Source: Bacteroidia bacterium (GTDB taxonomy: Bacteria; Bacteroidota; Bacteroidia; SpSt-205). From it: a stretch of 60,459 bases of DNA. Below, piece after piece: positions 5,149-22,712 of this stretch (within the stretch, counting starts at the first letter, position 1; each line of letters opens with the position of its first letter). Made by a program: the position numbers and the translations under genes. The DNA is taken from the NCBI GenBank assembly GCA_025057135.1, contig JANWXY010000022.1, forward strand, positions 1 through 60,459, in the 5' to 3' direction. A model generated the notes under the pieces. That model made no database searches. It was not told where the DNA came from and saw only the letters and a program-made list of their open reading frames with translations.

Positions 5149-8100
5149 ATGCATACTATCATGACTATGAGGCACATAGGGCGTATCTGGCTGCTGGTGA
5201 TGTTAGTGAAATGGGCATGGGGACGTGAAATCATGACCTCAGTAGAACGGCGAATCGCTCCCCGGACAGTAAGCACCTGTACAGCCCCCACTTCCAGCGT
5301 TCAACTAGACATCAATAATGTCAGATGCCTCATTCACAACGGAGGCGACATGTGGTGGGACCTCGTAAGCAGTCCTCGCTATGAAATCCCAAAAGTGCCA
5401 CCGGGAGTCCCCGCTATACATTCTATGTTCGCTAGTGCCGTGTGGGTAGGAGGCTTAGATGCTGCGGGGAGGTTGCGCCTCGCTGCTCAGACCTATCGCC
5501 AAAGCGGGATAGACTTCTTTGCAGGACCTCTGTCCCTGCAGGGTACTACTGATGCTAATACTTGCCAGCAGTGGGATAAGCACTTTGTCATTACCCGACA
5601 GGAAATAGATGCCTTCCGAGCCGCTTTCCAAACAAATCCTAACAATCTCAACCTCGGCGATTATCCGAATGTGGCTAACTGGCCTGCCATCAACCCTGCC
5701 CCGGGCTTTGAACGGACGCTTGCCCCATTTGTGGATCAAAATAATGATGGTGATTACACCCCAGCCGCAGGTGACTATCCAGATGTTTTAGGGGATATGG
5801 CTATTTGGTGGGTTTATAATGACCGAGGCAATGTTCATACCGAAACGGGCGCACCAGCTATTGGACTCGAAGTGCAAGCTCTAGCGTTTGCCTTTTCCAC
5901 CACCGATCAAATCAATGACATGACTTTCTACAAGTACCGCATCATCAATCGCGGTACTCTATCCCTGCGGCAGACTTACATGGCGATTTGGGTAGATGCG
6001 GATTTAGGGTTTTATGCAGATGACTATGTAGGGTGTGATACCTCTCGGGGTTTAGGCTACTGCTATAATGGAGACCCGGTTGACGACCCATCGGGACCGG
6101 GATATGGAGCAAATCCCCCAGCTATCGGAACGGACTTCTTCCAAGGTCCAATATATGACCCTGACCCGGTAAATCCCAAACGCCTCAAAATGACCAACTT
6201 CATGTATTATGAGAATGACTTCAGCGTCCGTGGTAATCCAACAAATGCTATTCACTTTTACAACTATATGCGTTCTATTTGGAAAGATGGATCCCCCCTG
6301 GTAAATAACAATCAAAATGGCTACGGAACAGGTACGCCCACCAACTTCATATACACAGGACATCCCGGTGGGGTACCAGCGGCCACCAGGTGCCCTTTCC
6401 CGACTCCTACTGGCACATGGAACGAAGCTACCGCAGGAAATAGCCCTTTTGATAGGCGCTACCTCCAATCAGCTGGTCCATTTACTCTTGATCCAGGCGC
6501 AGTAAATGACATCATCATTGGCGTTCCATGGGCTCGCGACATCACAGGCAGGTATGGCCCAGGCGGGGATGGAAGAATAGGTTCTGTCTGTTTATTGTAT
6601 CAAGCCGATGATATTGCTCAGGCATTATTTGACAATAACTTCAAGCTTGTCGATGGACCAGACGCCCCAGACTTGGAAATAGTAGAGTTAGATCAAGAGC
6701 TCATCCTTAACTGGCGCTACAAAAATCCTCTGTCCAACAACTACTATGAAAACTACCGCCAGACCGATCCAGTTCTGCGTTCTCTCGGTGTGTCTGACAC
6801 CACATACCGTTTTGAGGGATATTTAGTCTATCAGCTCAGAGATGCCCGGGTATCGGAAACCGACCTTCAAGACCCGACCAGAGCTGCTCTCATCGCCCAG
6901 TGTGATATCAAAAATGGTATAACTACCATCATAAACCGAGAAGAAACGCTCCTACCAGGGCAATCCACTCCGCTAATTGTCGACAAAGTGATGGTAAATG
7001 GTGAAGATAAAGGACTTTTTCATTCCATACGAGTGACAGAAGATAAGTTTGCTGAAGGAACAGACCCGCGTCTCAAAAACTATCAACGGTATTACTTCAT
7101 GATCGTGGCTTATGCTTATAATGGAGAGCCCACTAATAAACGTAAGTTTCTATTAGGACGGAATAACGTACGCCGTTATGAAGCTATACCGCATAAGCCT
7201 GCCTCTCGGGATGGAGGTAGCATACTCGCCAGCCAATATGGAGACGGTATCCCAATTCAACGAGTGTCAGGACTCGGAAATGGTGGAAATCTGCTCAGAT
7301 TATCTCCTGAAACGGAACAGCAACTACTCACTCCTCCTTATCAAGCTGAAAATCCTACCTATTTAGCGGGATTCGGTCCTTTTCGTGTCCGAGTAGTGGA
7401 CCCTCGCCAAGTCAAATCTTACGACTATCGTCTTGTCATCAACTTAGATACCACTATCCGTGAGACCCTAAATGTCGCTGGTAGTGAGCCAACAATCATT
7501 GTAAAGGAGTGGGAACTATACGGGAAGCCCAGCGGTTCTAACGCTGCCGAGCAGCTGATTTATACCTCGTGGAGTGCAATATCCAAGCGACTCTGGGACT
7601 ATAAACTCAACACATGGAATTTCGTTCTCAATCAGCACCTAAACGGTTCAGAGAAAATCATCCCCGGTCATGGCATATCTATATCGGTCAAGCAGGTGAT
7701 TGATCCCGGGATAGAGGATAGGTTCTTCAGCGGTGCGCAGTACCCCTGGTTATGCGGGAGCAGTGCAGATACCATGTTTTACTTTTTACAGGATGAGCGA
7801 AATGGTCTAATAAATGTACAGATAGAGTACTCAGACCCTACTAAGCCATGGCTTTCTTACTTCTCCCCCGAAGACTTTGGCTGGGGTAAAGGTCCAGGGC
7901 TCTCCCCCGGGCAAACTCCAACTTTTGGCGCTTCAAGTGCCTCTGATGCTGTTCAGAGATATTCCAGAGGCTGCCAGCTTACACAGTATCCTGTATCCCT
8001 CCCAGCAGGTGCTACACCTCTTATTCCATTCCGACCTTCGGCCATTCGGCTTCAACCATGGATTTACTACTACGATGGCAATATCAAAGCATTTTATACC

Positions 8101-9345
8101 GACTCCTCAAACAAAGGATGGCTTCCCTTTGGGTTAGTGACTCCTTTCTCTGATAAAGATGCTTCTCAACTCGGATTCGGACTGAACTATTGTCCAGCGA
8201 ACCCGGGGCAGCCTTGCAGTTCCCCTGCACTTTCTAACATCGCTACTCCGCCATGGGAAGGGGTTACTTTGTCTAAGCTTCCGAGCGTCCAAGTGGTGAT
8301 AACACCGGACCGCTCCAAGTGGTCTAAATGTCTGGTGTTAGAAGCCTCCCCCTCTCTCGGTCTAAGTCGTATCGTGGGAGCCGGTAGTCCTCGGGTCGCT
8401 AAATGGCGCCTCAGCCGAGATGTTATTAAGGGCGATACAACTGCTTTCCGAGATGAGCCTTTGTCTGTGTCTTCTCAAGGATTTAGCTGGTTCCCGGGAT
8501 ATGCTATCAACTTAGAAACTGGACAACGAGTGAATATCCTATTTGCCGAAGCGTCATGGTTCCGTGGCGATAATGGAGACGACATGCTCTTCAATCCAAC
8601 CTCCTCTCTCGGCTCCTCCGGAGATGCCTATGGGGGGCGTCACTGGATATTAGTGACCACCTATCCTTATGACGAATGTGCCAAGTTCGCTGAATGGCTC
8701 TGTGTCGCAGATCAACAGCCCACAGGCATAAATACTGTCAACCGTACCTACTTCTTAACCTTCAATAAGCCTGGGGGGAGTAACGTAGTACGCATAGACT
8801 CCTTTTACAAGTACGTAGCGTGGGTATCTCTGCCCCGAGTGGCCGGAAGGCAGTATGAGTTCCGTCACTACAAGGACATTCCGAGCGAGGTGAAGATCAC
8901 CCTTGCGGTGAATAAATCTTACAGACCCGGTCCGAACAATCAGCCCCCTACGTTTAGATTCTCCACTAACGAAATGGCCGCCAGAACTGGAGACCTTGCC
9001 ACCGCTAAAAGCGCGCTGGATATCATACGGATCGTGCCTAATCCATTCTACGGGAAGTCCGGAGTAGGTCGTGGCCGATATGAGATTAGTCAAATAGATA
9101 CCCGGGCCAAAATCACCAACCTCCCTCCACGCTGCACAATACGAATCTTCACATTGAATGGCGTACTCGTTCGCACCTTCCGAAAAGACTCTGAGGAAAC
9201 ATTCATAGAATGGGACCTCAAAAATGAGTTCGGCGTGCCAATTGCCAGCGGGGTTTACATCATACATGTGGATGTTCCCGGTGTCGGACAAAAAGTCATC
9301 AAGTTTTTCGCAATCATGCCACAAGTAGACCTCAATAACTTCTGA
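5149..9345 (+). CDS. Large secreted protein with C-terminal T9SS/FlgD-Ig-like sorting domain, function unknown
   Basis: Signal peptide. C-terminus IRIVPNPF...IRIFTLNGVLVR...WDLKN...IASGVYIIHV...KVIKF is typical of T9SS cargo. Start could be 5149, 5161 or 5167. Confidence 0.8.
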   Translation: MHTIMTMRHIGRIWLLVMLVKWAWGREIMTSVERRIAPRTVSTCTAPTSSVQLDINNVRCLIHNGGDMWWDLVSSPRYEIPKVPPGVPAIHSMFASAVWVGGLDAAGRLRLAAQTYRQSGIDFFAGPLSLQGTTDANTCQQWDKHFVITRQEIDAFRAAFQTNPNNLNLGDYPNVANWPAINPAPGFERTLAPFVDQNNDGDYTPAAGDYPDVLGDMAIWWVYNDRGNVHTETGAPAIGLEVQALAFAFSTTDQINDMTFYKYRIINRGTLSLRQTYMAIWVDADLGFYADDYVGCDTSRGLGYCYNGDPVDDPSGPGYGANPPAIGTDFFQGPIYDPDPVNPKRLKMTNFMYYENDFSVRGNPTNAIHFYNYMRSIWKDGSPLVNNNQNGYGTGTPTNFIYTGHPGGVPAATRCPFPTPTGTWNEATAGNSPFDRRYLQSAGPFTLDPGAVNDIIIGVPWARDITGRYGPGGDGRIGSVCLLYQADDIAQALFDNNFKLVDGPDAPDLEIVELDQELILNWRYKNPLSNNYYENYRQTDPVLRSLGVSDTTYRFEGYLVYQLRDARVSETDLQDPTRAALIAQCDIKNGITTIINREETLLPGQSTPLIVDKVMVNGEDKGLFHSIRVTEDKFAEGTDPRLKNYQRYYFMIVAYAYNGEPTNKRKFLLGRNNVRRYEAIPHKPASRDGGSILASQYGDGIPIQRVSGLGNGGNLLRLSPETEQQLLTPPYQAENPTYLAGFGPFRVRVVDPRQVKSYDYRLVINLDTTIRETLNVAGSEPTIIVKEWELYGKPSGSNAAEQLIYTSWSAISKRLWDYKLNTWNFVLNQHLNGSEKIIPGHGISISVKQVIDPGIEDRFFSGAQYPWLCGSSADTMFYFLQDERNGLINVQIEYSDPTKPWLSYFSPEDFGWGKGPGLSPGQTPTFGASSASDAVQRYSRGCQLTQYPVSLPAGATPLIPFRPSAIRLQPWIYYYDGNIKAFYTDSSNKGWLPFGLVTPFSDKDASQLGFGLNYCPANPGQPCSSPALSNIATPPWEGVTLSKLPSVQVVITPDRSKWSKCLVLEASPSLGLSRIVGAGSPRVAKWRLSRDVIKGDTTAFRDEPLSVSSQGFSWFPGYAINLETGQRVNILFAEASWFRGDNGDDMLFNPTSSLGSSGDAYGGRHWILVTTYPYDECAKFAEWLCVADQQPTGINTVNRTYFLTFNKPGGSNVVRIDSFYKYVAWVSLPRVAGRQYEFRHYKDIPSEVKITLAVNKSYRPGPNNQPPTFRFSTNEMAARTGDLATAKSALDIIRIVPNPFYGKSGVGRGRYEISQIDTRAKITNLPPRCTIRIFTLNGVLVRTFRKDSEETFIEWDLKNEFGVPIASGVYIIHVDVPGVGQKVIKFFAIMPQVDLNNF

Positions 9346-9347
9346 TT

Positions 9348-10448
9348 ATGCGCAGGTATCTCGTTTTACTCACTTTACTCGGAGCTGCTCTGGGAGGCAA
9401 TCCCGAACGAGCCGGTTCAGCTGGCGCTACTCAGCTACTCATCAATCCATATGCCCGAAGCTCGGGAATGGGTGGTATCAATATCGCTAATACTTACGGC
9501 ATAGAAAGCGTTATCATCAATCCCGCAGGCATCGCTCTCACTCGCCGAACAGAGTTCATATTCAGCCATACGCGATGGCTGGTAGGTAGCGATATAAATA
9601 TCAATGCATTTGGTTTTGCTCAGGGCTTCAAAAATGGCGGAACGCTTGGACTGGCTGTAATGGCATTTGATCTTGGACAGTTTGAGCGGACTACGATTGA
9701 CAATCCCGACGGTGGTATTGGCTACTTCTCCCCCACCATGCTGAATATCTCTATATCGTATGCCAAAGTATTTGCTGATGATAGGATATTCGTTGGAGCT
9801 ACGACCAAACTTATCCACGAGTCCATCCCCGATGCGGCAGCCAATGGAGTAGCCTTTGATGCAGGTGTCCAATACCGCGATAAGCAAGGCAATCTCAAGT
9901 TAGGAGTAGCACTTCGGAATATTGGTCCTCAGATGCGCTACAGAGGAGAGGGTCTCACCGCTCGAGCCAACCTCGGCGGCGCAGGCAGTGCATTCACGAG
10001 TCTGGTCAGCACGCCGCCCGCTTCATTCGAGATACCTTCGGTGCTTTTGATTGGCGCTGCATACCGTATCGGAATCGGTGGTGAAGCTGAGTTGAAAGCC
10101 CGAGAGTCTGCCGCCGGAGGCACTGGTGGGGATAGAGACTACCTCTTTTCAATCATCCCCATGCTCGGCTTCTACGCAAACTCATTCCAAAATAACCAGC
10201 TCGGTGGAGGCATAGAGCTCCGCTACAAAAATTACTTCATGATACGCGGGGCATATATGTGGGAGCCTGATATTACCAGTAAGGAAACCACACAGAACGC
10301 CTTCATGGGGATTAACTTTGGAGCTACGGTAGAGCTGCCTTTCCGCACAGGGGAGAACCGATATTCCACATTCGGGATTGACTATAGCTACCGTCCGACT
10401 TACTTCTTCAATGGCACACATAGCATTGGCGCCCGTCTATATTTATGA
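9348..10448 (+). CDS. PorV/PorQ-family outer-membrane beta-barrel
   Basis: Signal peptide, LLINPYARSSGMG and INPAGIA motifs, GVAFDAGVQY, LGVALRNIGP; directly follows a T9SS cargo gene. Confidence 0.85.
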   Translation: MRRYLVLLTLLGAALGGNPERAGSAGATQLLINPYARSSGMGGINIANTYGIESVIINPAGIALTRRTEFIFSHTRWLVGSDININAFGFAQGFKNGGTLGLAVMAFDLGQFERTTIDNPDGGIGYFSPTMLNISISYAKVFADDRIFVGATTKLIHESIPDAAANGVAFDAGVQYRDKQGNLKLGVALRNIGPQMRYRGEGLTARANLGGAGSAFTSLVSTPPASFEIPSVLLIGAAYRIGIGGEAELKARESAAGGTGGDRDYLFSIIPMLGFYANSFQNNQLGGGIELRYKNYFMIRGAYMWEPDITSKETTQNAFMGINFGATVELPFRTGENRYSTFGIDYSYRPTYFFNGTHSIGARLYL

Positions 10449-12470: not shown

Positions 12471-12491
12471 AGAAGGTACAAACTATCTTTG
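12471..12491. promoter_or_regulatory. Back-to-back -7 boxes (HD gene / acyl-CoA synthetase)
   Basis: TACCTTCT on - strand (12478-12471) and TATCTTTG on + strand (12484-12491), each 4 nt from a start codon. Confidence 0.6.
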
Positions 12492-14724: not shown

Positions 14725-14961
14725 ATGCAGCCTAAAATCCCTCAAAAAGCCCCATACGGAATAGAGCTACAACCAGGGACCTACTACTGGTGCGCCTGCG
14801 GACACAGCCAAAAGCAGCCATTCTGTGACGGTAGCCACAAAGGCACAGGCTTTACTCCGGTGAAGTTTACAATCCAAACGCCTAAAAAGGTCTGGATATG
14901 CGGCTGTAAGCACACCCAATCCACACCCTTTTGTGATGGTAGTCACCGCAGCCTTCCATAA
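14725..14961 (+). CDS. Double CDGSH [2Fe-2S] protein (CISD3/MiNT-like)
   Basis: Two C-x-C-x9-CDGSH motifs. ATG 14725 follows a TACACTTG box. Confidence 0.9.
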   Translation: MQPKIPQKAPYGIELQPGTYYWCACGHSQKQPFCDGSHKGTGFTPVKFTIQTPKKVWICGCKHTQSTPFCDGSHRSLP

Positions 14962-15050
14962 TCCACTGACTGAGCCAATCAAATTTTGGGCAATATTCGG
15001 CGCCTACTCTTCATAGAAATAACAGCTGTTGCGCGGGGCAGGCCAGCACC

Positions 15051-16085
15051 CTATCGAAGGGGCATACTTACCACCTCTACCTCTGGGAAGGTATCCCTTA
15101 CACGCTGTAAATCTGTGTCTGTGAGAAAGGTCTGCATGGCGAGTCGGCTGAGACGACCGAGAGCCGAGAGTCTATCTCTATCTAACTTTTCGCCTACATC
15201 ATCTAAAAGTAAAATGGGTTGTCCCCCTTTTGCCCGTAGGTGGGCAACTTCTGCCCACTTGAGCGCGATAAGGAGTGATTTTTTCTGTCCCTCGGACGCA
15301 TAGCCACGAGCAGGACGCCCATCCAGCCTGAGGATAAAGTCTTCTAGATGAGGACCTATGAGAGTCCTACCCAATCTTTGTTCATCTTTACGCAGTCGCT
15401 GCCAAGCTGATAACCAAGCCTCACGCTCCATTTCTACGGAGAGCTTATAGTTCAGCTCTAAGGGCTCTCCCCCAAAGTGTGTATAAAACTCTGCGAGAAT
15501 AGGCGAGAAATGTTCGCTGAGCTCTTGACGCATCTTCTGGATGCGAATGCCCTCAGAGATGAGAAGGGTTTCCCAAAGCTCCAGTTGAGCGGGCATCACA
15601 TCGGCTCTGCTTAGCAGAGCATTTCGTTGATCTAAGGCGCGCTGGTACCGGCTAAGGGCCTCTAAGTAGGCAGGAGAAATTTGACATAGGAGCTTATCTG
15701 ACCAGCGACGACGCTCGGCGGCACTACCTTCTATCCAGCTTATATCTGCTGGACGCAAAGACACCACTGGGAAGCGCCCTACCCATTGAGACAAAGGCTG
15801 AACCAGCTCTCCCTGCCAGTATAAGCGATTGCCCTTACCTTTCTCATAGAGCAGCTCCACGATACCCTCGGACACCCGAGCACGCAATCGGTAGGCAGAG
15901 CTGCCCCACCGCACCATCTCCTCATCTTTACCGAAGCCGCGCAGAATCGTGAGCTTTTGGATAGCTTCTAAAATGGAGGTCTTGCCAGAGGCATTTGGTC
16001 CGACCCAAGCAGTACCCCTCTCACCCAGTTCAAGGACTATGTGAGCATAACACCTAAAATTTGACAGCTCAATTGCCCGAAGCAC
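15051..16085 (-). CDS. recF: DNA replication/repair ATPase RecF
   Basis: NFRCY, Walker A GPNASGKT, ALDQRNALL, ASEGQKK signature, LLLDD Walker B. Confidence 0.9.
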   Translation of the reverse strand: MLRAIELSNFRCYAHIVLELGERGTAWVGPNASGKTSILEAIQKLTILRGFGKDEEMVRWGSSAYRLRARVSEGIVELLYEKGKGNRLYWQGELVQPLSQWVGRFPVVSLRPADISWIEGSAAERRRWSDKLLCQISPAYLEALSRYQRALDQRNALLSRADVMPAQLELWETLLISEGIRIQKMRQELSEHFSPILAEFYTHFGGEPLELNYKLSVEMEREAWLSAWQRLRKDEQRLGRTLIGPHLEDFILRLDGRPARGYASEGQKKSLLIALKWAEVAHLRAKGGQPILLLDDVGEKLDRDRLSALGRLSRLAMQTFLTDTDLQRVRDTFPEVEVVSMPLR

Positions 16086-16090
16086 CAGTG

Positions 16091-16114
16091 TATCTTTGCT
16101 TCATGGCAAAAGTA
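16091..16114. promoter_or_regulatory. Divergent -7 boxes for pdhA (+) and recF (-)
   Basis: TATCTTTG (16091-16098) lies 4 nt before the pdhA ATG. TACTTTTG on - strand (16114-16107) lies inside the first codons of pdhA. Confidence 0.55.
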
Positions 16115-17119
16115 AAAGCTCCGGAGGTGCAGCCCTACACGCGAGAGCAACTTCTTTTCTGGTATCGGCAAATGTTAGCGGTGCGGCGCATGGAAGAAAA
16201 AGCCGCCCAGCTCTATACCCAACAGAAAATTCGCGGCTTCCTCCATCTATATATCGGACAGGAAGCCACCGGCATGGGCATAGAGGCAGCTATCCGTCCA
16301 GAGGACTATGTCATCACAGGATACCGAGAACATGGAAATGCCTACTTCCGAGGTATCTCCATGCGCGCAATCATGGCAGAACTGATGGCCAAAGAAACGG
16401 GCTGCTCCCGTGGCAAGGGTGGGTCTATGCACATGTTTTCCAAAGAACGACGATTTCTGGGAGGCCACGGAATTGTGGGAGCTCAAATAGGGATTGGCAC
16501 AGGTGTGGCTTTTGCTATCAAGTATCGTGGAGAAGACTTGATTAGCGTGACGATGTTTGGAGACGGAGCCGCTCGCCAAGGCATGCTTCATGAGAGCTTC
16601 AATATGGCTATGCTATGGACACTGCCCGTTTTGTACATATGCGAAAATAATCAGTATGCTATGGGCACTGCAGTCACTCGTAGCTCTAATGTAACAGAAA
16701 TCTATCGCCTCGCTTGCGCATACGACATGCCCTCTCAGAGAGTAGATGGCATGAGTATATTTTCCGTATATGAAGCGGTGCGTCATGCCGCTGAACATAT
16801 TCGTTCAGGAAAAGGGCCATACTTCCTGGAAATAATGACCTACAGATACCGTGGGCACTCCATGTCAGACCCTGCCAAGTATCGTACTCGCGAAGAAGTA
16901 GAAGCGTACAAGGAAAAAGACCCCATAGCCCATTTGCAAAACTATTTATACGAACATCAGCTTGCCACAGAAGCCGACATAGACCGCATAGAAGAAGAGG
17001 TCGCTGCGGAGGTAGCCGATGCTGTGGCTTTCGCAGAAGCGAGTCCTTTCCCTGCCGCAGAGCAGTTGTATGAAGATGTCTATGTGCAGCCAGATTATCC
17101 TTTCCTCAGAGAATGGTGA
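16103..17119 (+). CDS. pdhA: Pyruvate dehydrogenase E1 alpha subunit
   Basis: IRGFLHLYIGQEA, GKGGSMH, GDGA...ENNQY ThDP motif, TYRYRGHSMSDP. Start moved to ATG 16103. Confidence 0.93.
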   Translation: MAKVKAPEVQPYTREQLLFWYRQMLAVRRMEEKAAQLYTQQKIRGFLHLYIGQEATGMGIEAAIRPEDYVITGYREHGNAYFRGISMRAIMAELMAKETGCSRGKGGSMHMFSKERRFLGGHGIVGAQIGIGTGVAFAIKYRGEDLISVTMFGDGAARQGMLHESFNMAMLWTLPVLYICENNQYAMGTAVTRSSNVTEIYRLACAYDMPSQRVDGMSIFSVYEAVRHAAEHIRSGKGPYFLEIMTYRYRGHSMSDPAKYRTREEVEAYKEKDPIAHLQNYLYEHQLATEADIDRIEEEVAAEVADAVAFAEASPFPAAEQLYEDVYVQPDYPFLREW

Positions 17120-18534
17120 AGGTCGGTGCCGCTACTCATCCTGGACGGGTCCGTACCACGAATGAAGACTTCATTTATCACGGACCCACTCCTATCGGGT
17201 ACGTAGGCATTGTATGCGACGGGATGGGGGGGCATGAAGCTGGCGAAGTCGCCGCCCGTATCGCAGCCGAAGCTGCCTATAAGTTCCTATGTGAAGCGCA
17301 GCCTACCCGCGACATGGAAGGGCTATTGCGAGATGCCGTACTCTCCGCCAACCAGCAAATACTTCTGAGGGTACAAGCTCACCCCCAAAGCAAAGCCCCT
17401 GGTTCTACAATCGTAATAGCTCTCATAGACGAGACCCACATCACATTCGCCCATGTGGGCGATAGCCGGCTGTATATGTATCACAAAGGCGAACTCACAC
17501 CTCTGACGCAAGATGACTCCTTGGTGCAGCAGATGTTCTCCTCAGGACTCATCACCGCCGAACAGGCAATCAACCATCCGCAGAAAAATGTCCTTACTCA
17601 AAGTTTAGGACAACATCCCGCCCCGACCCCCCATACAAAACGACTCCCAATAAAAAAGGGAGCTATCTACCTGCTATGCAGTGACGGTCTCTCCAACTCC
17701 CTCTCAAAGGAGGAGCTCACTACTGCTCTGGCTCGTGCCGCCGATACACCGCTGGAAGAGATAGCCAACCTACTCATTCAGCAAGCTAACGCCAACGGAG
17801 GGTACGACAATATCTCTGTGGTGCTCCTGCAGCCCCCTCATAAAACCGCTACCTTTGTAGGTCGTATGAACCTCAAGCTCCCCCCTACGAAGTACCTCAT
17901 CGGTGGTGGCATAGCTATTATCGTCGTAATTCTCGCCGTGATCCTTTTTACCAGAGGGCGCCGCACCCCGCAGACCACAGAGTCCGGAGAAATCGTTATC
18001 ACAGACGACACGACCCCAAGTCCCCAGAACGACAGCACCGCCAGCCTCACAGACTCGGAACTCCCTCCCTCCACCCCCGCAGAAGAAATATCCCCTTCTA
18101 CCCCTCCACCTACTTCTAACCTACCAAACAATCCTCCGTCAGAACTGCCTAAAACCTCCAAATCTACTCCTACTACAAAGAAGCCCACAAAAACTTCAAA
18201 AGAAAATTCTGAATCCTCTTCATCCAATGGAGCAGTCATTGAATACACCATCCAGAAAGGCGATAATCTGCTAAAAATAGCAGAGGCATTCGGCGTTTCG
18301 AGAAATGAAATCAGAAAGATAAACGGGCTGAAGGACGATAACATCAAGGTAGGTAAGAAACTCAAGATTCCAGTCAAGGCCGTACAAACTCATGTGGTTG
18401 GGGAAAAAGAGACTCTCTCTGGCATAGCGAGGAAATATGGTACTCGGGTAGAAGCTATAAAGCGAGCCAACGGCTTAGAAGATGAAAAAATCCGAGAAAA
18501 GCAGAAGCTAATTATCCCAATTCTGAAAAAATGA
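17113..18534 (+). CDS. PP2C/Stp1-type Ser/Thr phosphatase fused to a TM helix, Pro/Ser/Thr linker and two LysM domains
   Basis: PP2C motifs RTTNED, CDGMGGH, HVGDSR, LLCSDGL, GGYDN. TM segment LIGGGIAIIVVILAVILF. LysM repeats YTIQKGDNL...LKIP and HVVGEKETL...LIIP. Confidence 0.85.
   Translation: MVKVGAATHPGRVRTTNEDFIYHGPTPIGYVGIVCDGMGGHEAGEVAARIAAEAAYKFLCEAQPTRDMEGLLRDAVLSANQQILLRVQAHPQSKAPGSTIVIALIDETHITFAHVGDSRLYMYHKGELTPLTQDDSLVQQMFSSGLITAEQAINHPQKNVLTQSLGQHPAPTPHTKRLPIKKGAIYLLCSDGLSNSLSKEELTTALARAADTPLEEIANLLIQQANANGGYDNISVVLLQPPHKTATFVGRMNLKLPPTKYLIGGGIAIIVVILAVILFTRGRRTPQTTESGEIVITDDTTPSPQNDSTASLTDSELPPSTPAEEISPSTPPPTSNLPNNPPSELPKTSKSTPTTKKPTKTSKENSESSSSNGAVIEYTIQKGDNLLKIAEAFGVSRNEIRKINGLKDDNIKVGKKLKIPVKAVQTHVVGEKETLSGIARKYGTRVEAIKRANGLEDEKIREKQKLIIPILKK
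17850..17857 (+). promoter_or_regulatory. Putative internal -7 box before in-frame Met252 (ATG 17866)
   Basis: Exact TACCTTTG 8 nt before an in-frame ATG located between the PP2C domain and the TM-LysM part. Confidence 0.4.
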
Positions 18535-20099
18535 GCACGCTGATTGGCAAAAAGCTGCTCAACTATAAAGTAGAAAAGCTCCTCGGTCAAGGAGGAATGG
18601 GTGAGGTGTACCTCGGGGTACATACCGAAATAGGGCGTAAGGTCGCTATCAAAATGATCAGCCCACATTTGGCTCGCGACCCACGCATCCAAGAGCGCTT
18701 CAAACGAGAAGCCCTCATCATGGCTAAGCTCAATCACCCCAACATAGTCCAGTTATACGACTACTGGGCTCGTCCTGATGAAGGTCTCTTTCTGATCATG
18801 GAGTATGTGGAGGGGATATCATTGGACCGCTATATTCATCGGGTACAGTGCGGACCGCTTCCCCCCAAACAGGCGATAGACATTTTCCTTCAAGTTCTGG
18901 ATGCGTTTGAATACGCACATAAAAATGGAGTCATTCACCGAGATATCAAGCCCAGTAATATCCTCCTACGCACAGATAATGTAGTCAAAGTATTAGATTT
19001 CGGCATAGCTCGGATTATTAGCACAGAGACTAACGACCCAGCTGAATCTCCCTCCCTGACAAAAACTGGCACCACCTTAGGCACTGTATCCTACATGAGC
19101 CCAGAACAGCTCCGCTCCAAAAGCGCTGGCGATATAGACCACCGTTCAGATATCTACTCGTTGGGTGTAGTGTTATTTGAAATGCTAACTGGACGAGAAC
19201 TGTATGACCGCTCTCAACTGTCAGAATTTGAGATATTGGTGAAAATAGCCACTGAACCCCCTCCCCCGCTATCCGAGCTAAACCCCAAAATCGCCCCTGA
19301 TTTTGAACCCATCCTCAAAAAAGCTCTCGCAAAGAACCGAGAAGATCGCTACCAATCTTGTCAAGAGTTCGCCGCAGCTCTCTTACCGCTTATACCCAAG
19401 TATGACAAACCAGATAGCCCACCCCCTGTGCGCAATCCCGCTCTGACCAAAACACAAGTTTCTAATGTCCCCCCTACCCCTTCTCCTAAGATAGAGCCAT
19501 CTAAAAAAGAAGAGCTGAAAAAGCCCTCCAGCCAGGCTGTTTCTGGAAAGCAGCGGCGAGTGATCATGATAAGCGGAATAGCCGCATTACTCATCATAGC
19601 AGCCGTGCTGTGGTGGCAGATGAACTACTCAGCCGCCCGAAATAAAGCCTTAGCCATAGCCGATTCTTTTTCCGTAGCGCTCAATCGCCATGATGAAAAG
19701 CTGCTCGCCAGTCTATTCGCTGATACTTTATCTCCCTTCTATTCGGAAGAAAAAGTTCCTAAGACCCAAGCGCTGCAAAAGTACTTCGCGAGTTTCTGGA
19801 AAAGCATCCAAAAAGACTCTGTCTCTTGGATGACCCCCCCAGAATATAAGCGAGAAGGCGGCACGACCATTGTAGAAGGCACTCTTTACCAACATTACAC
19901 ACCGAAACCCCAAATAGTTACGCAGGTAGAACAGGCACCAGCAGGTCGACAAGCTTGGCGAAGAGCTATTACACCTCGCAGAACCATAACCCGAGAAGTG
20001 CCCTTGCCTCCGATATGCAAAATCAAAAGGCTGAAGATATTCATTTCCGATGAAAAAATCAGGGGCATTCAGCTTTTAGACACTCGGGATTGTCCTTGA
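18531..20099 (+). CDS. Membrane-anchored Hanks-type Ser/Thr kinase with small extracytoplasmic domain
   Basis: GQGGMG, VAIK, HRDIKPSN, DFG, GTVSYMSPE, DIYSLG; Pro-rich linker; TM IMISGIAALLIIAAVLWW. Confidence 0.93.
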   Translation: MSTLIGKKLLNYKVEKLLGQGGMGEVYLGVHTEIGRKVAIKMISPHLARDPRIQERFKREALIMAKLNHPNIVQLYDYWARPDEGLFLIMEYVEGISLDRYIHRVQCGPLPPKQAIDIFLQVLDAFEYAHKNGVIHRDIKPSNILLRTDNVVKVLDFGIARIISTETNDPAESPSLTKTGTTLGTVSYMSPEQLRSKSAGDIDHRSDIYSLGVVLFEMLTGRELYDRSQLSEFEILVKIATEPPPPLSELNPKIAPDFEPILKKALAKNREDRYQSCQEFAAALLPLIPKYDKPDSPPPVRNPALTKTQVSNVPPTPSPKIEPSKKEELKKPSSQAVSGKQRRVIMISGIAALLIIAAVLWWQMNYSAARNKALAIADSFSVALNRHDEKLLASLFADTLSPFYSEEKVPKTQALQKYFASFWKSIQKDSVSWMTPPEYKREGGTTIVEGTLYQHYTPKPQIVTQVEQAPAGRQAWRRAITPRRTITREVPLPPICKIKRLKIFISDEKIRGIQLLDTRDCP

Positions 20100-20169
20100 A
20101 AACCCGACTCGTACTGATAGAGTCGCAGATATTTATATCTAACATAGAAAAGCGTACCTTTGCGATACC

Positions 20170-21507
20170 ATGGCAAAATCGGATGAGCAAAGCAAACTAC
20201 CCACGGGAAAGGTGGCGCGCGCCTCGCATTTTTTGAAAGGTGGATTACGCGTCGGTGCAAATGTAGTTAAACATCAAGCTAAAAAGCTCCTCGGCAAGGA
20301 AGTGTCTCGTGACGACTTAGACCGAGAAAACGCCGAGGACCTTTTGAAGACATTTACACAGCTGCGCGGCTCAGCTTTGAAAGTTGCTCAGACTATATCG
20401 TTAGACACGATAAACTTTTCAAAATCTTTCGTGGAGGTAATGCAAAATGCCCAATACAGTGTACCTCCTATGAGTGGGCCCATGGTAGTGCAAGTATTCA
20501 AACGGAGTATTGGACAGCCTCCCGAAAAGGTTTTTGACAAGTTCAACATTCATGCCATCCGAGCAGCCTCTCTCGGTCAAGTCCATGAAGCGTGGAAAGA
20601 CGGTAAAAAACTCGCCGTCAAAATTCAATACCCCGGCGTCGCAGAATCTATCCAGTCCGACATGAAGATTTTTCGGACATTCGCCCCCCGGATAACTCGC
20701 ATTCCCCTGGAAGAGTTGGAGCCTTACATTCAAGAGATGGAAGAGAAGTTTCTGGAGGAGGCGGATTACCGTAAGGAGCTGCAAAACTCTCTCGCTTTCA
20801 AGGAGCTGTGCAAAAACTTCCCTAACTTGCGGTTTCCAGAGTACTATCCCGAGCTATGTGGAGATAAAGTGCTGACCATGGAGTGGCTAGAGGGGCTCCA
20901 CTTGCGAGAGTACCTCGCCACGAATCCCCCCTACGAAGAGAAACAGCATTTTGGACAAATCATCTGGGACTTTTACAGCTTCCAGATTCATGCGCTGCGC
21001 CAGGTAAATGCCGACCCTCATCCGGGAAACTTTCTCTTTCGCAAGGACGGCACGCTGGGAGTAATAGACTTTGGATGCACAAAACTCATACCGGAGGAGC
21101 TGTATAAAGCTTATTTTTCTCTGGGTGACCCTAAAATCTACGAACCCAAAAACCGCAAAAAGTTAGACGCCACATTTGAGAAACTGGCTCTATACAGGGA
21201 GGATGATACACCCGAAGAGCGAGAATATGTGCGTGACCTTTTTAGCCGCTTCGCTCAAATACTGGCCACCCCTTATAGATTAGGAAAGATGGACTTCCGT
21301 CAAACAGATTTCTTTGAAGCCCTCAATAGCGTCGGAGAGGAAATAGCCCGAACCCGTGAACTGAGAGGGCTGAAAGACTTTTTATTTCTCAACCGAACTT
21401 TCCTCGGACTCTTTAATCTATTTCATCAGCTTGGGGTAGAGTTAGACACGCGCTGCGAATATCTCCCCTATTACGACTATAGCCATTTATCAGCATCCCC
21501 ATCCTAA
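20170..21507 (+). CDS. ABC1/AarF/UbiB-family atypical kinase
   Basis: LRGSALKVAQ, AASLGQVH, AVKIQYPG, ADPHPGNF, IDFGC. Confidence 0.92.
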   Translation: MAKSDEQSKLPTGKVARASHFLKGGLRVGANVVKHQAKKLLGKEVSRDDLDRENAEDLLKTFTQLRGSALKVAQTISLDTINFSKSFVEVMQNAQYSVPPMSGPMVVQVFKRSIGQPPEKVFDKFNIHAIRAASLGQVHEAWKDGKKLAVKIQYPGVAESIQSDMKIFRTFAPRITRIPLEELEPYIQEMEEKFLEEADYRKELQNSLAFKELCKNFPNLRFPEYYPELCGDKVLTMEWLEGLHLREYLATNPPYEEKQHFGQIIWDFYSFQIHALRQVNADPHPGNFLFRKDGTLGVIDFGCTKLIPEELYKAYFSLGDPKIYEPKNRKKLDATFEKLALYREDDTPEEREYVRDLFSRFAQILATPYRLGKMDFRQTDFFEALNSVGEEIARTRELRGLKDFLFLNRTFLGLFNLFHQLGVELDTRCEYLPYYDYSHLSASPS

Positions 21508-22712
21508 TCTCTTTCTGTAAAGTCTAACGATACCCCGAAAGTCTCCCGCAGGCGACTCGCCGACCATAGCGCTACGCCGTACAATATAAGCCCTGTAAAT
21601 AAAGCGCTACCCCGGAGTGACAGATAGCCCTGAAATCCCTCCCACAGAAAAGTAGAGAGCACCAGAGAGCCCCTAATCCAGTTGGGCACGCTGGTAGCTA
21701 CAGTAGCCCGAAGGTTAGTGCCGAACTGCTCTGCCGAGCTGGTGATGAGCACCGCCCAGTATCCAGAAAACATACCGAGTAAAAGAGCCAACCCATACAC
21801 CATTTCCACCGAAGAAAACGTCATCAAATTATAAACCACAGAGAGTAATAGGCTGACACTTAGCCACAAAAGCACAGGCTTTTTACGACTGCGTGTGACT
21901 TGACTGAGTATGCCGGCGAGTAGATCACCTATTGACAAGCCGATATAAGCATACATGACCGCTCGCCCTGCACGCACAGGCAGGCCGGCTTCCTTGAAAA
22001 GATCAGGCGCAAAAGTGATAAGTATCCCTATCACATACCATATAGGAACTCCGGCTAAGACTGCATATACATACCGAGCCAACCGTTCTCTCCGGCGAAA
22101 AATCTGGAAAAAATCCCCCATAGGCACCTCTCCGTGCTGACGCAGCGACTCAAACAGTCCTGACTCTCCAACGCCTATGCGTAAAAGCAGCAACAAAAGC
22201 CCCATTCCTCCTCCGATAAAGTAAGCATACCGCCAAGGAAATAAGTCTCCAACTAAGCTGGCTACAACTGCTCCCAAAATACCCAGCGTAGCTATCAAGG
22301 TGGTTCCCCACCCTCTCAAATGCGGCGGCATGATCTCAGCCACAAGCGTGACCCCAGCTCCCAACTCTCCTGCTAACCCAATCCCAGCTATAAACCGCCA
22401 TATCGCATACCCATAGACGCTCTCTACGAGACCGTTGAAGATATTTGCAAGCGAGTAGGTCAAAATTGACCCAAATAAGATAGAGAGCCTCCCTCTTTTA
22501 TCGGCTAAAACGCCCCATATCAGCCCACCTATGAGCATGCCTATCATCTGGAGATTGATGAGGAGCACACCATACCTCAGTTTTTCTGCCCCTGCATACC
22601 CTAAATCAGTCAAGCTGGCTTCTCTCACCACAGAAAATAATATCAGGTCGTAAATATCCACGAAGTACCCCAAAGTAGCTACGATGACCGCCAACCAAAC
22701 CTTACGTGTCAT
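21504..22712 (-). CDS. MFS transporter
   Basis: About 12 hydrophobic segments, GVLADKRGR motif A, RFIAGIGLAGE, EQFGTNLRAT. Confidence 0.9.
   Translation of the reverse strand: MTRKVWLAVIVATLGYFVDIYDLILFSVVREASLTDLGYAGAEKLRYGVLLINLQMIGMLIGGLIWGVLADKRGRLSILFGSILTYSLANIFNGLVESVYGYAIWRFIAGIGLAGELGAGVTLVAEIMPPHLRGWGTTLIATLGILGAVVASLVGDLFPWRYAYFIGGGMGLLLLLLRIGVGESGLFESLRQHGEVPMGDFFQIFRRRERLARYVYAVLAGVPIWYVIGILITFAPDLFKEAGLPVRAGRAVMYAYIGLSIGDLLAGILSQVTRSRKKPVLLWLSVSLLLSVVYNLMTFSSVEMVYGLALLLGMFSGYWAVLITSSAEQFGTNLRATVATSVPNWIRGSLVLSTFLWEGFQGYLSLRGSALFTGLILYGVALWSASRLRETFGVSLDFTERD

Follow-up and report, generated by a model that had tools for sequence, protein, structure and literature searches.

A PP2C phosphatase and Hanks kinase gene pair linked to pdhA in one family of hot-spring Bacteroidia, with a candidate promoter inside the phosphatase gene

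The DNA analyzed here (hereafter, the window) is a 60,459-nucleotide (nt) stretch, contig C45 of genome G000, an assembly of 2.08 Mb in 94 contigs that is 98.1% complete. It comes from one family (f1) of uncultured hot-spring Bacteroidia with genomes of ~2 Mb. On its forward strand lie three genes in direct succession: pdhA, encoding the E1 alpha subunit (E1-alpha) of pyruvate dehydrogenase (PDH); a gene for a PP2C-type phosphatase with a transmembrane (TM) segment and two LysM domains; and a gene for a Hanks-type Ser/Thr kinase (Table 1). The end of pdhA overlaps the start of the phosphatase gene, which in turn overlaps the start of the kinase gene. A first-pass annotation of this DNA described both overlaps and a serine codon in the RYRGHSMSDP loop of pdhA, and on direct reading all of these coordinates hold, the serine being residue 253. 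It further proposed that the phosphatase and kinase form a phosphorylation switch on E1-alpha, akin to the mitochondrial pyruvate dehydrogenase kinase and pyruvate dehydrogenase phosphatase (PDK/PDP), that responds to the state of the envelope.

Table 1. Features of the pdhA locus and its flanks (positions in the window; aa, amino acids)
Feature	Coordinates	Strand	Evidence or remarks
recF	15051..16085	-	PF02463 SMC_N and AAA family matches
pdhA -7 box TATCTTTG	16091..16098	+	Ends 4 nt before ATG 16103
pdhA, E1 alpha subunit of pyruvate dehydrogenase, 338 aa	16103 (ATG)..17119	+	TIGR03182, PF00676
Ser253 codon TCC, within RYRGHSMSDP	16859..16861	+	Aligns with Ser of human HGHSMSDP
ATGGTGA overlap, pdhA stop (TGG-TGA) with PP2C ATG	17113..17119	+	Direct reading
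PP2C-TM-2xLysM phosphatase, 473 aa	17113..18534	+	PF13672/PF00481, PF01476
Internal -7 box TACCTTTG, candidate promoter P2	17850..17857	+	In linker from catalytic domain to TM segment
In-frame ATG, Met252	17866..17868	+	8 nt after internal box; candidate start of 222-aa TM-2xLysM product
ATGA overlap, kinase ATG with PP2C TGA	18531..18534	+	Direct reading
Hanks Ser/Thr kinase, 522 aa	18531..20099	+	PF00069
ABC1 gene -7 box TACCTTTG	20155..20162	+	7 nt before ATG 20170; 3' operon limit
ABC1/UbiB-like atypical kinase gene	20170..21507	+	PF03109, 2.3e-52; starts 70 nt past Hanks kinase

The pdhA product scores 467.7 bits against the equivalog model TIGR03182 (PDH_E1_alph_y; cut-off 393.85) over profile positions 2-315 of 315, matches PF00676 at 5.6e-103, and matches the chains of human PDHA1 with an E value of about 1e-101. 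The genome also encodes the partner subunits, pdhB (327 aa, a Transket_pyr match) on contig C46 and E2 (415 aa) on contig C47. Both are unlinked to pdhA and set among unrelated genes on those contigs, and the pdhA locus is thus not a PDH operon.

The phosphatase comprises a catalytic domain (residues 1-241), a TM segment (262-280), a Pro/Ser/Thr-rich linker, and two LysM domains (~378-420 and 427-469; PF01476, 2.4e-27), which lie behind its single hydrophobic segment. Its motifs DGMGG, GDSR, SDG, and DN, as well as the metal-binding residues D36, G37, D117, D191, and D232, are invariant in 13 orthologs, with phosphatase identity within the family as low as ~45-48%. The protein scores 231.8 bits against the Stp1/IreP model NF033484, barely above the cut-off of 230, and the solved structures closest to it are PstP, Stp1, and PphA (E values 1e-38 to 1e-32; 1.7e-38 to 2e-33 for PstP and Stp1). 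Mitochondrial PPM1K scores merely 26.9 bits against it, and among its 57 matches in the PDB (E <= 0.01) no chain is named pyruvate dehydrogenase phosphatase.

The kinase, which also has a single hydrophobic segment, is laid out as a kinase domain (residues 12-277; PF00069, 1.5e-59), a TM segment (344-362), and a C-terminal periplasmic domain (~365-522). Its VAIK, HRD, and DFG motifs and Thr-rich activation loop are conserved, and K41, H136-R137-D138, D156-F157-G158, and T177/T185 are invariant. The closest solved structures are those of PknB (3e-60). The top NCBIfam match is the PknB_PASTA kinase model NF033483, with 330.1 bits against a cut-off of 450, and this match covers profile positions 9-369 of 563 and is confined to the kinase part. 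No PASTA domain is found in the C-terminal 161 aa even at E <= 5, and this outer domain, which has no Pfam match, contains two invariant cysteines, Cys496 and Cys521.

Taken together, the pair is PknB/PstP-like and not PDK/PDP-like. It shares with the cell-wall-sensing pairs PknB-PstP of Mycobacterium tuberculosis, Stk1-Stp1, and PrkC-PrpC a PP2C gene placed directly upstream of a kinase gene on the same strand. This order is also found in 41 of 77 unrelated PP2C loci from diverse bacteria, in keeping with the first-pass view of the two proteins as cognate partners. The resemblance extends to the catalytic domains, for which PstP/Stp1 and PknB are the closest solved structures, to single-pass membrane topology, and to the possession of an extracytoplasmic peptidoglycan-binding module, LysM in this case. 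The differences are nonetheless considerable. The kinase here lacks PASTA domains and has an outer domain that is modeled as NTF2/SnoaL-like, and the peptidoglycan-binding module, two LysM domains, is carried by the phosphatase rather than by the kinase. The host is a diderm member of the Bacteroidia, the pair is joined to pdhA and not to genes of division or the cell wall, and the phosphatase gene contains a candidate internal promoter. The link to the envelope that the first-pass annotation had assumed is plausible, by way of the LysM tail of the phosphatase and the periplasmic domain of the kinase with its two invariant cysteines. This would be a eukaryotic-like Ser/Thr kinase and phosphatase pair in a diderm Bacteroidia whose sensing is split in an unusual manner, with LysM on the phosphatase and an apparently NTF2-like domain on the kinase. 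By term search, a 2025 survey of bacterial PP2C architectures (PMC12088040) names PASTA and SpoIIE and has 0 occurrences of "LysM" in the text available, and LysM likewise has 0 occurrences in the accessible text of a review of Hanks kinases with substrate tables (PMC6213207).

The genome as a whole has four Hanks kinases, including a tandem pair on contig C44, and three PP2C paralogs; beyond the pdhA locus, the coordinates for this set of kinases and phosphatases are C44 12413-14712, C71 10118-10873, C7 15232-15936, and C51 51205-53647. On C51, the PP2C gene comes immediately after a pair of FHA-domain genes, with which it forms an overlapping set. The only PP2C/Hanks pair in the genome whose members adjoin each other is the one linked to pdhA.

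Within the family the arrangement is strongly conserved. Among the orthologous loci of 14 relatives, pdhA lies directly upstream of the PP2C gene in 13 (12 complete and one cut by a contig end), while the 14th begins inside the PP2C gene; in all 14 the kinase gene follows in the same orientation. A 15th genome has the order pdhA-PP2C-kinase with frameshifted pieces, and no ortholog was found in a 16th family genome that is 65% complete. On contig C3 of G010 (7927-10317), pdhA and PP2C are each broken into two or three neighboring pieces that lie in different frames; indels introduced in assembly or decay of this copy may account for the breaks. When 12 family loci were extended by several kilobases, the three-gene block was kept in all of them, as was the overlap between pdhA and PP2C. 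The overlap between PP2C and the kinase gene is present in 11 of the 12, with a 3-nt gap in the remaining locus (L072). The divergent recF gene adjoins pdhA in 11 of these loci, the 12th being cut by a contig end, and the outer flanks are far less stable: the ABC1/UbiB-like gene is found downstream in four of the 12 and a CDGSH gene beyond recF in one. The pdhA-PP2C-kinase block has thus outlived rearrangement on both sides. The ATGA overlaps in themselves carry little weight, since by a crude gene call ~95% of the genome is coding and such overlaps join ~212 of 1123 same-strand neighbor pairs; the first-pass annotation had rightly cautioned that this compact genome couples unrelated genes.

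Outside the family, the linkage disappears. In the single available genome of the sister family (G017), a different open reading frame (ORF) immediately follows pdhA, and a separate 250-nt non-coding leader containing a TATCTTTG box precedes the PP2C gene. Among 151 sampled genomes of the class, 147 of them outside the family (the unpublished G109 is included in these tallies only), pdhA is detected at E <= 1e-60 in 138 and PP2C in 22, of which 18 lie outside the family. With flanks viewed from the side of one gene or of the other, pdhA and PP2C were adjacent in none of the 17 non-family genomes that hold both; they are on different contigs in 16 of these and 2 Mb apart in the other. Neither a PP2C gene nor a kinase gene lies downstream of pdhA in any of 20 non-family Bacteroidia loci. 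What follows pdhA in 9 of the 19 such loci with a downstream ORF is an E2-like lipoyl-domain N terminus as in the E2 of the window genome, and in four non-family loci it is a 231-aa membrane protein. Seen from the phosphatase, pdhA is within 3.5 kb in none of the 77 diverse bacterial PP2C loci. The synteny on which the first-pass proposal was to be judged is firm within the family and missing beyond it.

Two further comparisons bear on the age and meaning of this linkage. The adjacency of recF and pdhA, two functionally unrelated genes, also occurs in 9 of 24 non-family loci (L026, L030, L031, L034, L036, L042, L157, L159, and L162), and because it is conserved more widely than the pdhA-PP2C junction, conserved adjacency here need not imply shared function. 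Phosphatases of the same PP2C-TM-2xLysM architecture are encoded in two other Bacteroidia families (L046, L047, and L050; L051, L052, and L054), and none of these six loci has a kinase gene or pdhA within the fetched stretches. The LysM phosphatase thus predates its linkage to pdhA.

The Bacteroidota sigma-A -7 box is described as TAnnTTTG in passages of PMC7366714 and PMC9723704, and those of the latter place it at -12 to -5. The window holds 50 matches to this motif, compared with 28 +/- 5.7 in shuffled sequences. Genome-wide, 611 such boxes have, no more than 60 nt downstream, an ATG that opens an ORF of at least 90 aa, and 387 of these boxes sit 3-9 nt before the ATG; the most frequent spacing is 4 nt (159 cases), over a background of about 4 per distance. 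The box in front of pdhA shows this modal spacing and is kept in each of the 12 family loci in which the start of pdhA is present. A box at -12 to -5 followed by a 4-nt gap puts the predicted transcription start at the A of the pdhA ATG, which would make the mRNA leaderless. Neither in the window nor in any family locus examined does a TAnnTTTG box immediately precede the start of PP2C or of the kinase gene. As the later starts have no box, the three genes are predicted to form one unit transcribed from the pdhA promoter, which the first-pass annotation had also placed upstream of all three; they look like a co-transcribed set that ends before the promoter of the ABC1/UbiB-like gene. Judged by boxes and sequence signals alone, the putative sigma-A sites are conserved and their geometry fits gene starts across the genome. 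A scan for terminators returned 11 terminator-like sites against 8.0 +/- 2.5 in shuffles, none of them on the forward strand between 16103 and 20099, and a sigma-70 scan returned five promoter-like sites against 7.0 +/- 2.6 in shuffles; neither count is informative.

A further box lies within the phosphatase gene itself, between the segments encoding the catalytic domain and the TM helix, and several lines of evidence suggest that it is a second promoter, P2. The box is present in 13 of 14 PP2C orthologs, and its variation is confined to the two N positions (CC, TC, or TT); the exception is the closest relative, G004, which has TACCTTCG, with one mismatch. In all 14 orthologs an in-frame ATG follows at a fixed distance of 8 nt, and all 13 sequences of alignment A3 have the corresponding Met252. 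Across the genome, 28 boxes have this 8-nt spacing to an ATG, against the background of about 4. In a codon alignment of the 14 genes, there are 268 columns with at least three amino acids, and among these codon 246 alone has an invariant third base, which is a T of the internal box. The third base is invariant in just one of 85 columns in which the amino acid is invariant, and silent sites elsewhere are therefore saturated. Of 1492 8-mers compared for nucleotide conservation, the one at 17850 shares the top rank with the catalytic GDSR motif. The conservation of the internal box is selection on the DNA, in the form expected of a putative promoter consensus.

A second promoter at this place probably yields a LysM product without the phosphatase domain, together with expression of the kinase that is independent of pdhA. 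The 222-aa fragment beginning at Met252 retains the LysM match at 9e-28. The short cytoplasmic head of this product (MNLKLPPxKYLIGGG) is highly conserved. Internal in-frame starts are known to give rise to C-terminal isoforms of bacterial proteins, as in CheA-S, IF2-beta, and ClpB-79, and as in those cases the internal Met would give a product devoid of the N-terminal domain. Unlike them, the short form here would come from an internal promoter of its own, on a near-leaderless mRNA that also carries the kinase gene. The box is not found at the equivalent place in the PP2C-LysM genes of the two other Bacteroidia families, and the internal promoter would accordingly be specific to this family. 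We regard this candidate promoter, together with the apparently leaderless promoter geometry of the lineage, as the most useful new facts to emerge from the locus. It offers a clear, testable case of a promoter buried in coding sequence, whose activity would yield a shortened isoform and allow a kinase to be expressed apart from its phosphatase.

On balance, we favor the view that this is an operon of shared expression, peculiar to one family, in which an envelope-signaling pair has become fused to pdhA and locked in place. In an ancestor of the family, a transmembrane pair of the PknB/PstP type would have landed directly behind a solitary pdhA. The leaderless pdhA transcript would then supply full-length phosphatase and kinase, their translation being coupled at the overlaps. 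A transcript from the internal box, starting at ~17862, would encode the TM-2xLysM protein from Met252 and then the kinase, with the ATGA overlap carrying translation from the short LysM product into the kinase. The dosage of the kinase and that of the phosphatase domain may thereby be partly independent of pdhA. By analogy with its relatives, the pair most likely signals the state of the envelope or peptidoglycan to several cytoplasmic targets. The junction between pdhA and PP2C could persist for a mechanical reason: with no promoter predicted directly in front of it, the full-length phosphatase would be silenced by separation from pdhA. If the pair merely rides on the pdhA transcript in this way, the locus shows that unrelated genes in streamlined genomes can be tied to one another by a conserved, overlapping order, and annotation through guilt by association would mislead at such loci.

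Several points weigh against this view. The case for co-transcription, an internal start, and a short product is read from sequence. No substrate of the pair emerged from the analysis. The assignment of the outer domain of the kinase comes from comparing predicted models: an Atlas structural model resembles models of SnoaL_4 and DUF4440 with TM-scores of 0.70-0.72, a lead only, pointing to an NTF2/SnoaL-like fold. Finally, survival of the pdhA-PP2C junction amid rearranged flanks fits selection for the linkage itself, and this is the best argument for a functional tie between the pair and pdhA.

Such a tie could be indirect. The pair might scale with the expression of central carbon metabolism, or it might act on PDH or the use of acetyl-CoA through another target, such as an FHA adaptor. 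In favor of such a tie are the apparent placement of the pair on the pdhA promoter, with translational coupling, and the three FHA matches, four Hanks kinases, and three PP2C paralogs of the genome. There is also precedent in the Actinobacteria, where, according to passages of PMC6213207, Hanks kinases control 2-oxoglutarate dehydrogenase (ODH) through GarA/OdhI. That system, with its kinases PknG and PknB, is alike in tying a Hanks kinase to a 2-oxoacid dehydrogenase complex. It differs in that it acts through a small FHA adaptor on the ODH E1 and its genes do not lie next to the E1 gene, whereas the locus in the window has no FHA gene and its neighbor encodes the PDH E1-alpha. None of the three FHA-domain matches is at the pdhA locus. 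On inspection none is an obvious GarA-like adaptor; the small FHA ORF on contig C30 has a hydrophobic tail and does not look like GarA. With no adaptor gene at the locus and no GarA-like candidate on C30, we consider an indirect metabolic tie unlikely.

The direct switch put forward in the first-pass annotation, in which the kinase phosphorylates Ser253 of E1-alpha, the PP2C phosphatase reverses this, and peptidoglycan signals thereby drive pyruvate flux, fares somewhat worse, and we judge it improbable. Several points speak for it. The operon and its overlaps are conserved across a deep family while neighboring junctions broke, and E1-alpha is close to the mitochondrial enzyme and keeps the serine in the same HSMSDP loop, with a phosphatase of the PP2C fold encoded next door. 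This serine is the equivalent of mitochondrial site 1. A change in PdhA phosphorylation has some bacterial precedent: in a Mycoplasma genitalium mutant of the PP2C gene MG_207, PdhA spots with changed phosphorylation are described (PMC3639085), and the passages concerned give no gene linkage, site, or effect on PDH activity.

The serine itself, however, is uninformative about regulation. All 34 Bacteroidia E1-alpha sequences compared have it, and 21 of these come from genomes that lack the pdhA-PP2C-kinase arrangement, as the first-pass annotation had itself warned might be so, and just 18 of the 147 non-family genomes have PP2C at all. The other mitochondrial sites are not kept. The serine of human GVSYR at site 2 aligns to a gap beside an alanine (PA-KYR) in the window E1-alpha, and site 3 is an alanine in the window (YAMGTAV) and a serine in 10 of 13 family members. 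In the comparison of 34 sequences, 16 residues of E1-alpha are specific to the family, and none of them is a serine or threonine. No family-specific signature lies near the phospho-loop, these residues clustering instead at positions 22-87 and at the C-terminal Trp; this last residue, Trp338, exists because the overlap between pdhA and PP2C creates it.

The enzymes do not resemble those of the mitochondrial system either. The kinase is of the Hanks type and not of the PDK/BCKDK (GHKL) type, and the phosphatase is of the PstP/Stp1 type, with no PDP among its PDB matches. The PDK/BCKDK-type domain PF10436 had no match in the genome and none in the control genomes, so that, in a search without a positive control, its absence is not established. 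The location of pdhB and E2 elsewhere, the partial uncoupling of the kinase from pdhA that the candidate internal promoter would bring, and the wider conservation of the unrelated recF-pdhA adjacency all count against a dedicated PDH regulator. A predicted complex of PdhA with the kinase domain (residues 1-290) scored 0.00, a value obtained without controls that speaks neither for nor against an interaction. The open-access literature text searched contained no paper in which a Hanks kinase switches a bacterial PDH E1-alpha at the site-1 serine, and in the accessible text of the Hanks kinase review "pyruvate dehydrogenase" has 0 occurrences by term search (PMC6213207). Nothing singles out E1-alpha as the substrate, and the switch, though not refuted, gains no specific support. 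A fuller version, in which a Hanks-kinase counterpart of PDK/PDP is dedicated to PDH, ties the acetyl-CoA supply to the cell wall, and has its kinase:phosphatase ratio set by P2, is in our estimation a long shot as well. If E1-alpha were indeed a substrate, phosphorylation control of PDH would not be a purely mitochondrial invention.

As to the internal TACCTTTG element, it might be no promoter but a nucleotide-level element of another sort, for example one that binds a protein, acts as a signal in RNA, or was left by recombination, with no short LysM product made; P2 is called from a -7 box, and the closest relative has a mismatch in it, but this alternative is hard to credit when the six specified sigma-A consensus positions are kept as the two free ones vary, the ATG and Met252 hold their place throughout the orthologs, the same box-to-ATG geometry marks gene starts genome-wide, and no Rfam family matches the region (0 matches in a scan of 14900-21600).

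The spacing of boxes and start codons seems to point to leaderless or near-leaderless mRNAs on a large scale in this lineage. Examples of a box followed closely by an ATG in the window are found at 12484-12491 (start 12496), as well as at the pdhA and ABC1 starts (16091-16098 with 16103, and 20155-20162 with 20170), and one PP2C gene of a different Bacteroidia family (L047) begins in the same manner. For comparison, passages of PMC7366714 and PMC9723704 give 3.7% of 5' untranslated regions shorter than 10 nt in Bacteroides thetaiotaomicron and 5.5% leaderless mRNAs in Flavobacterium psychrophilum.

Upstream of the operon, recF is divergent from pdhA, and the two start codons are separated by 17 bp. 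With almost no spacer between the divergent genes, each of the two promoters must lie within or at the edge of the other gene. Near-identical DNA to the window was seen only in contig sets from hot-spring metagenome DNA, three runs from two studies holding most of the stretch, and the runs listed included none of RNA. Downstream, the ABC1/UbiB-like gene is a separate unit outside the conserved block; its identity in the four closest relatives, 89-95%, is far above that of its neighbors, and in the other eight extended loci it is not at this position.

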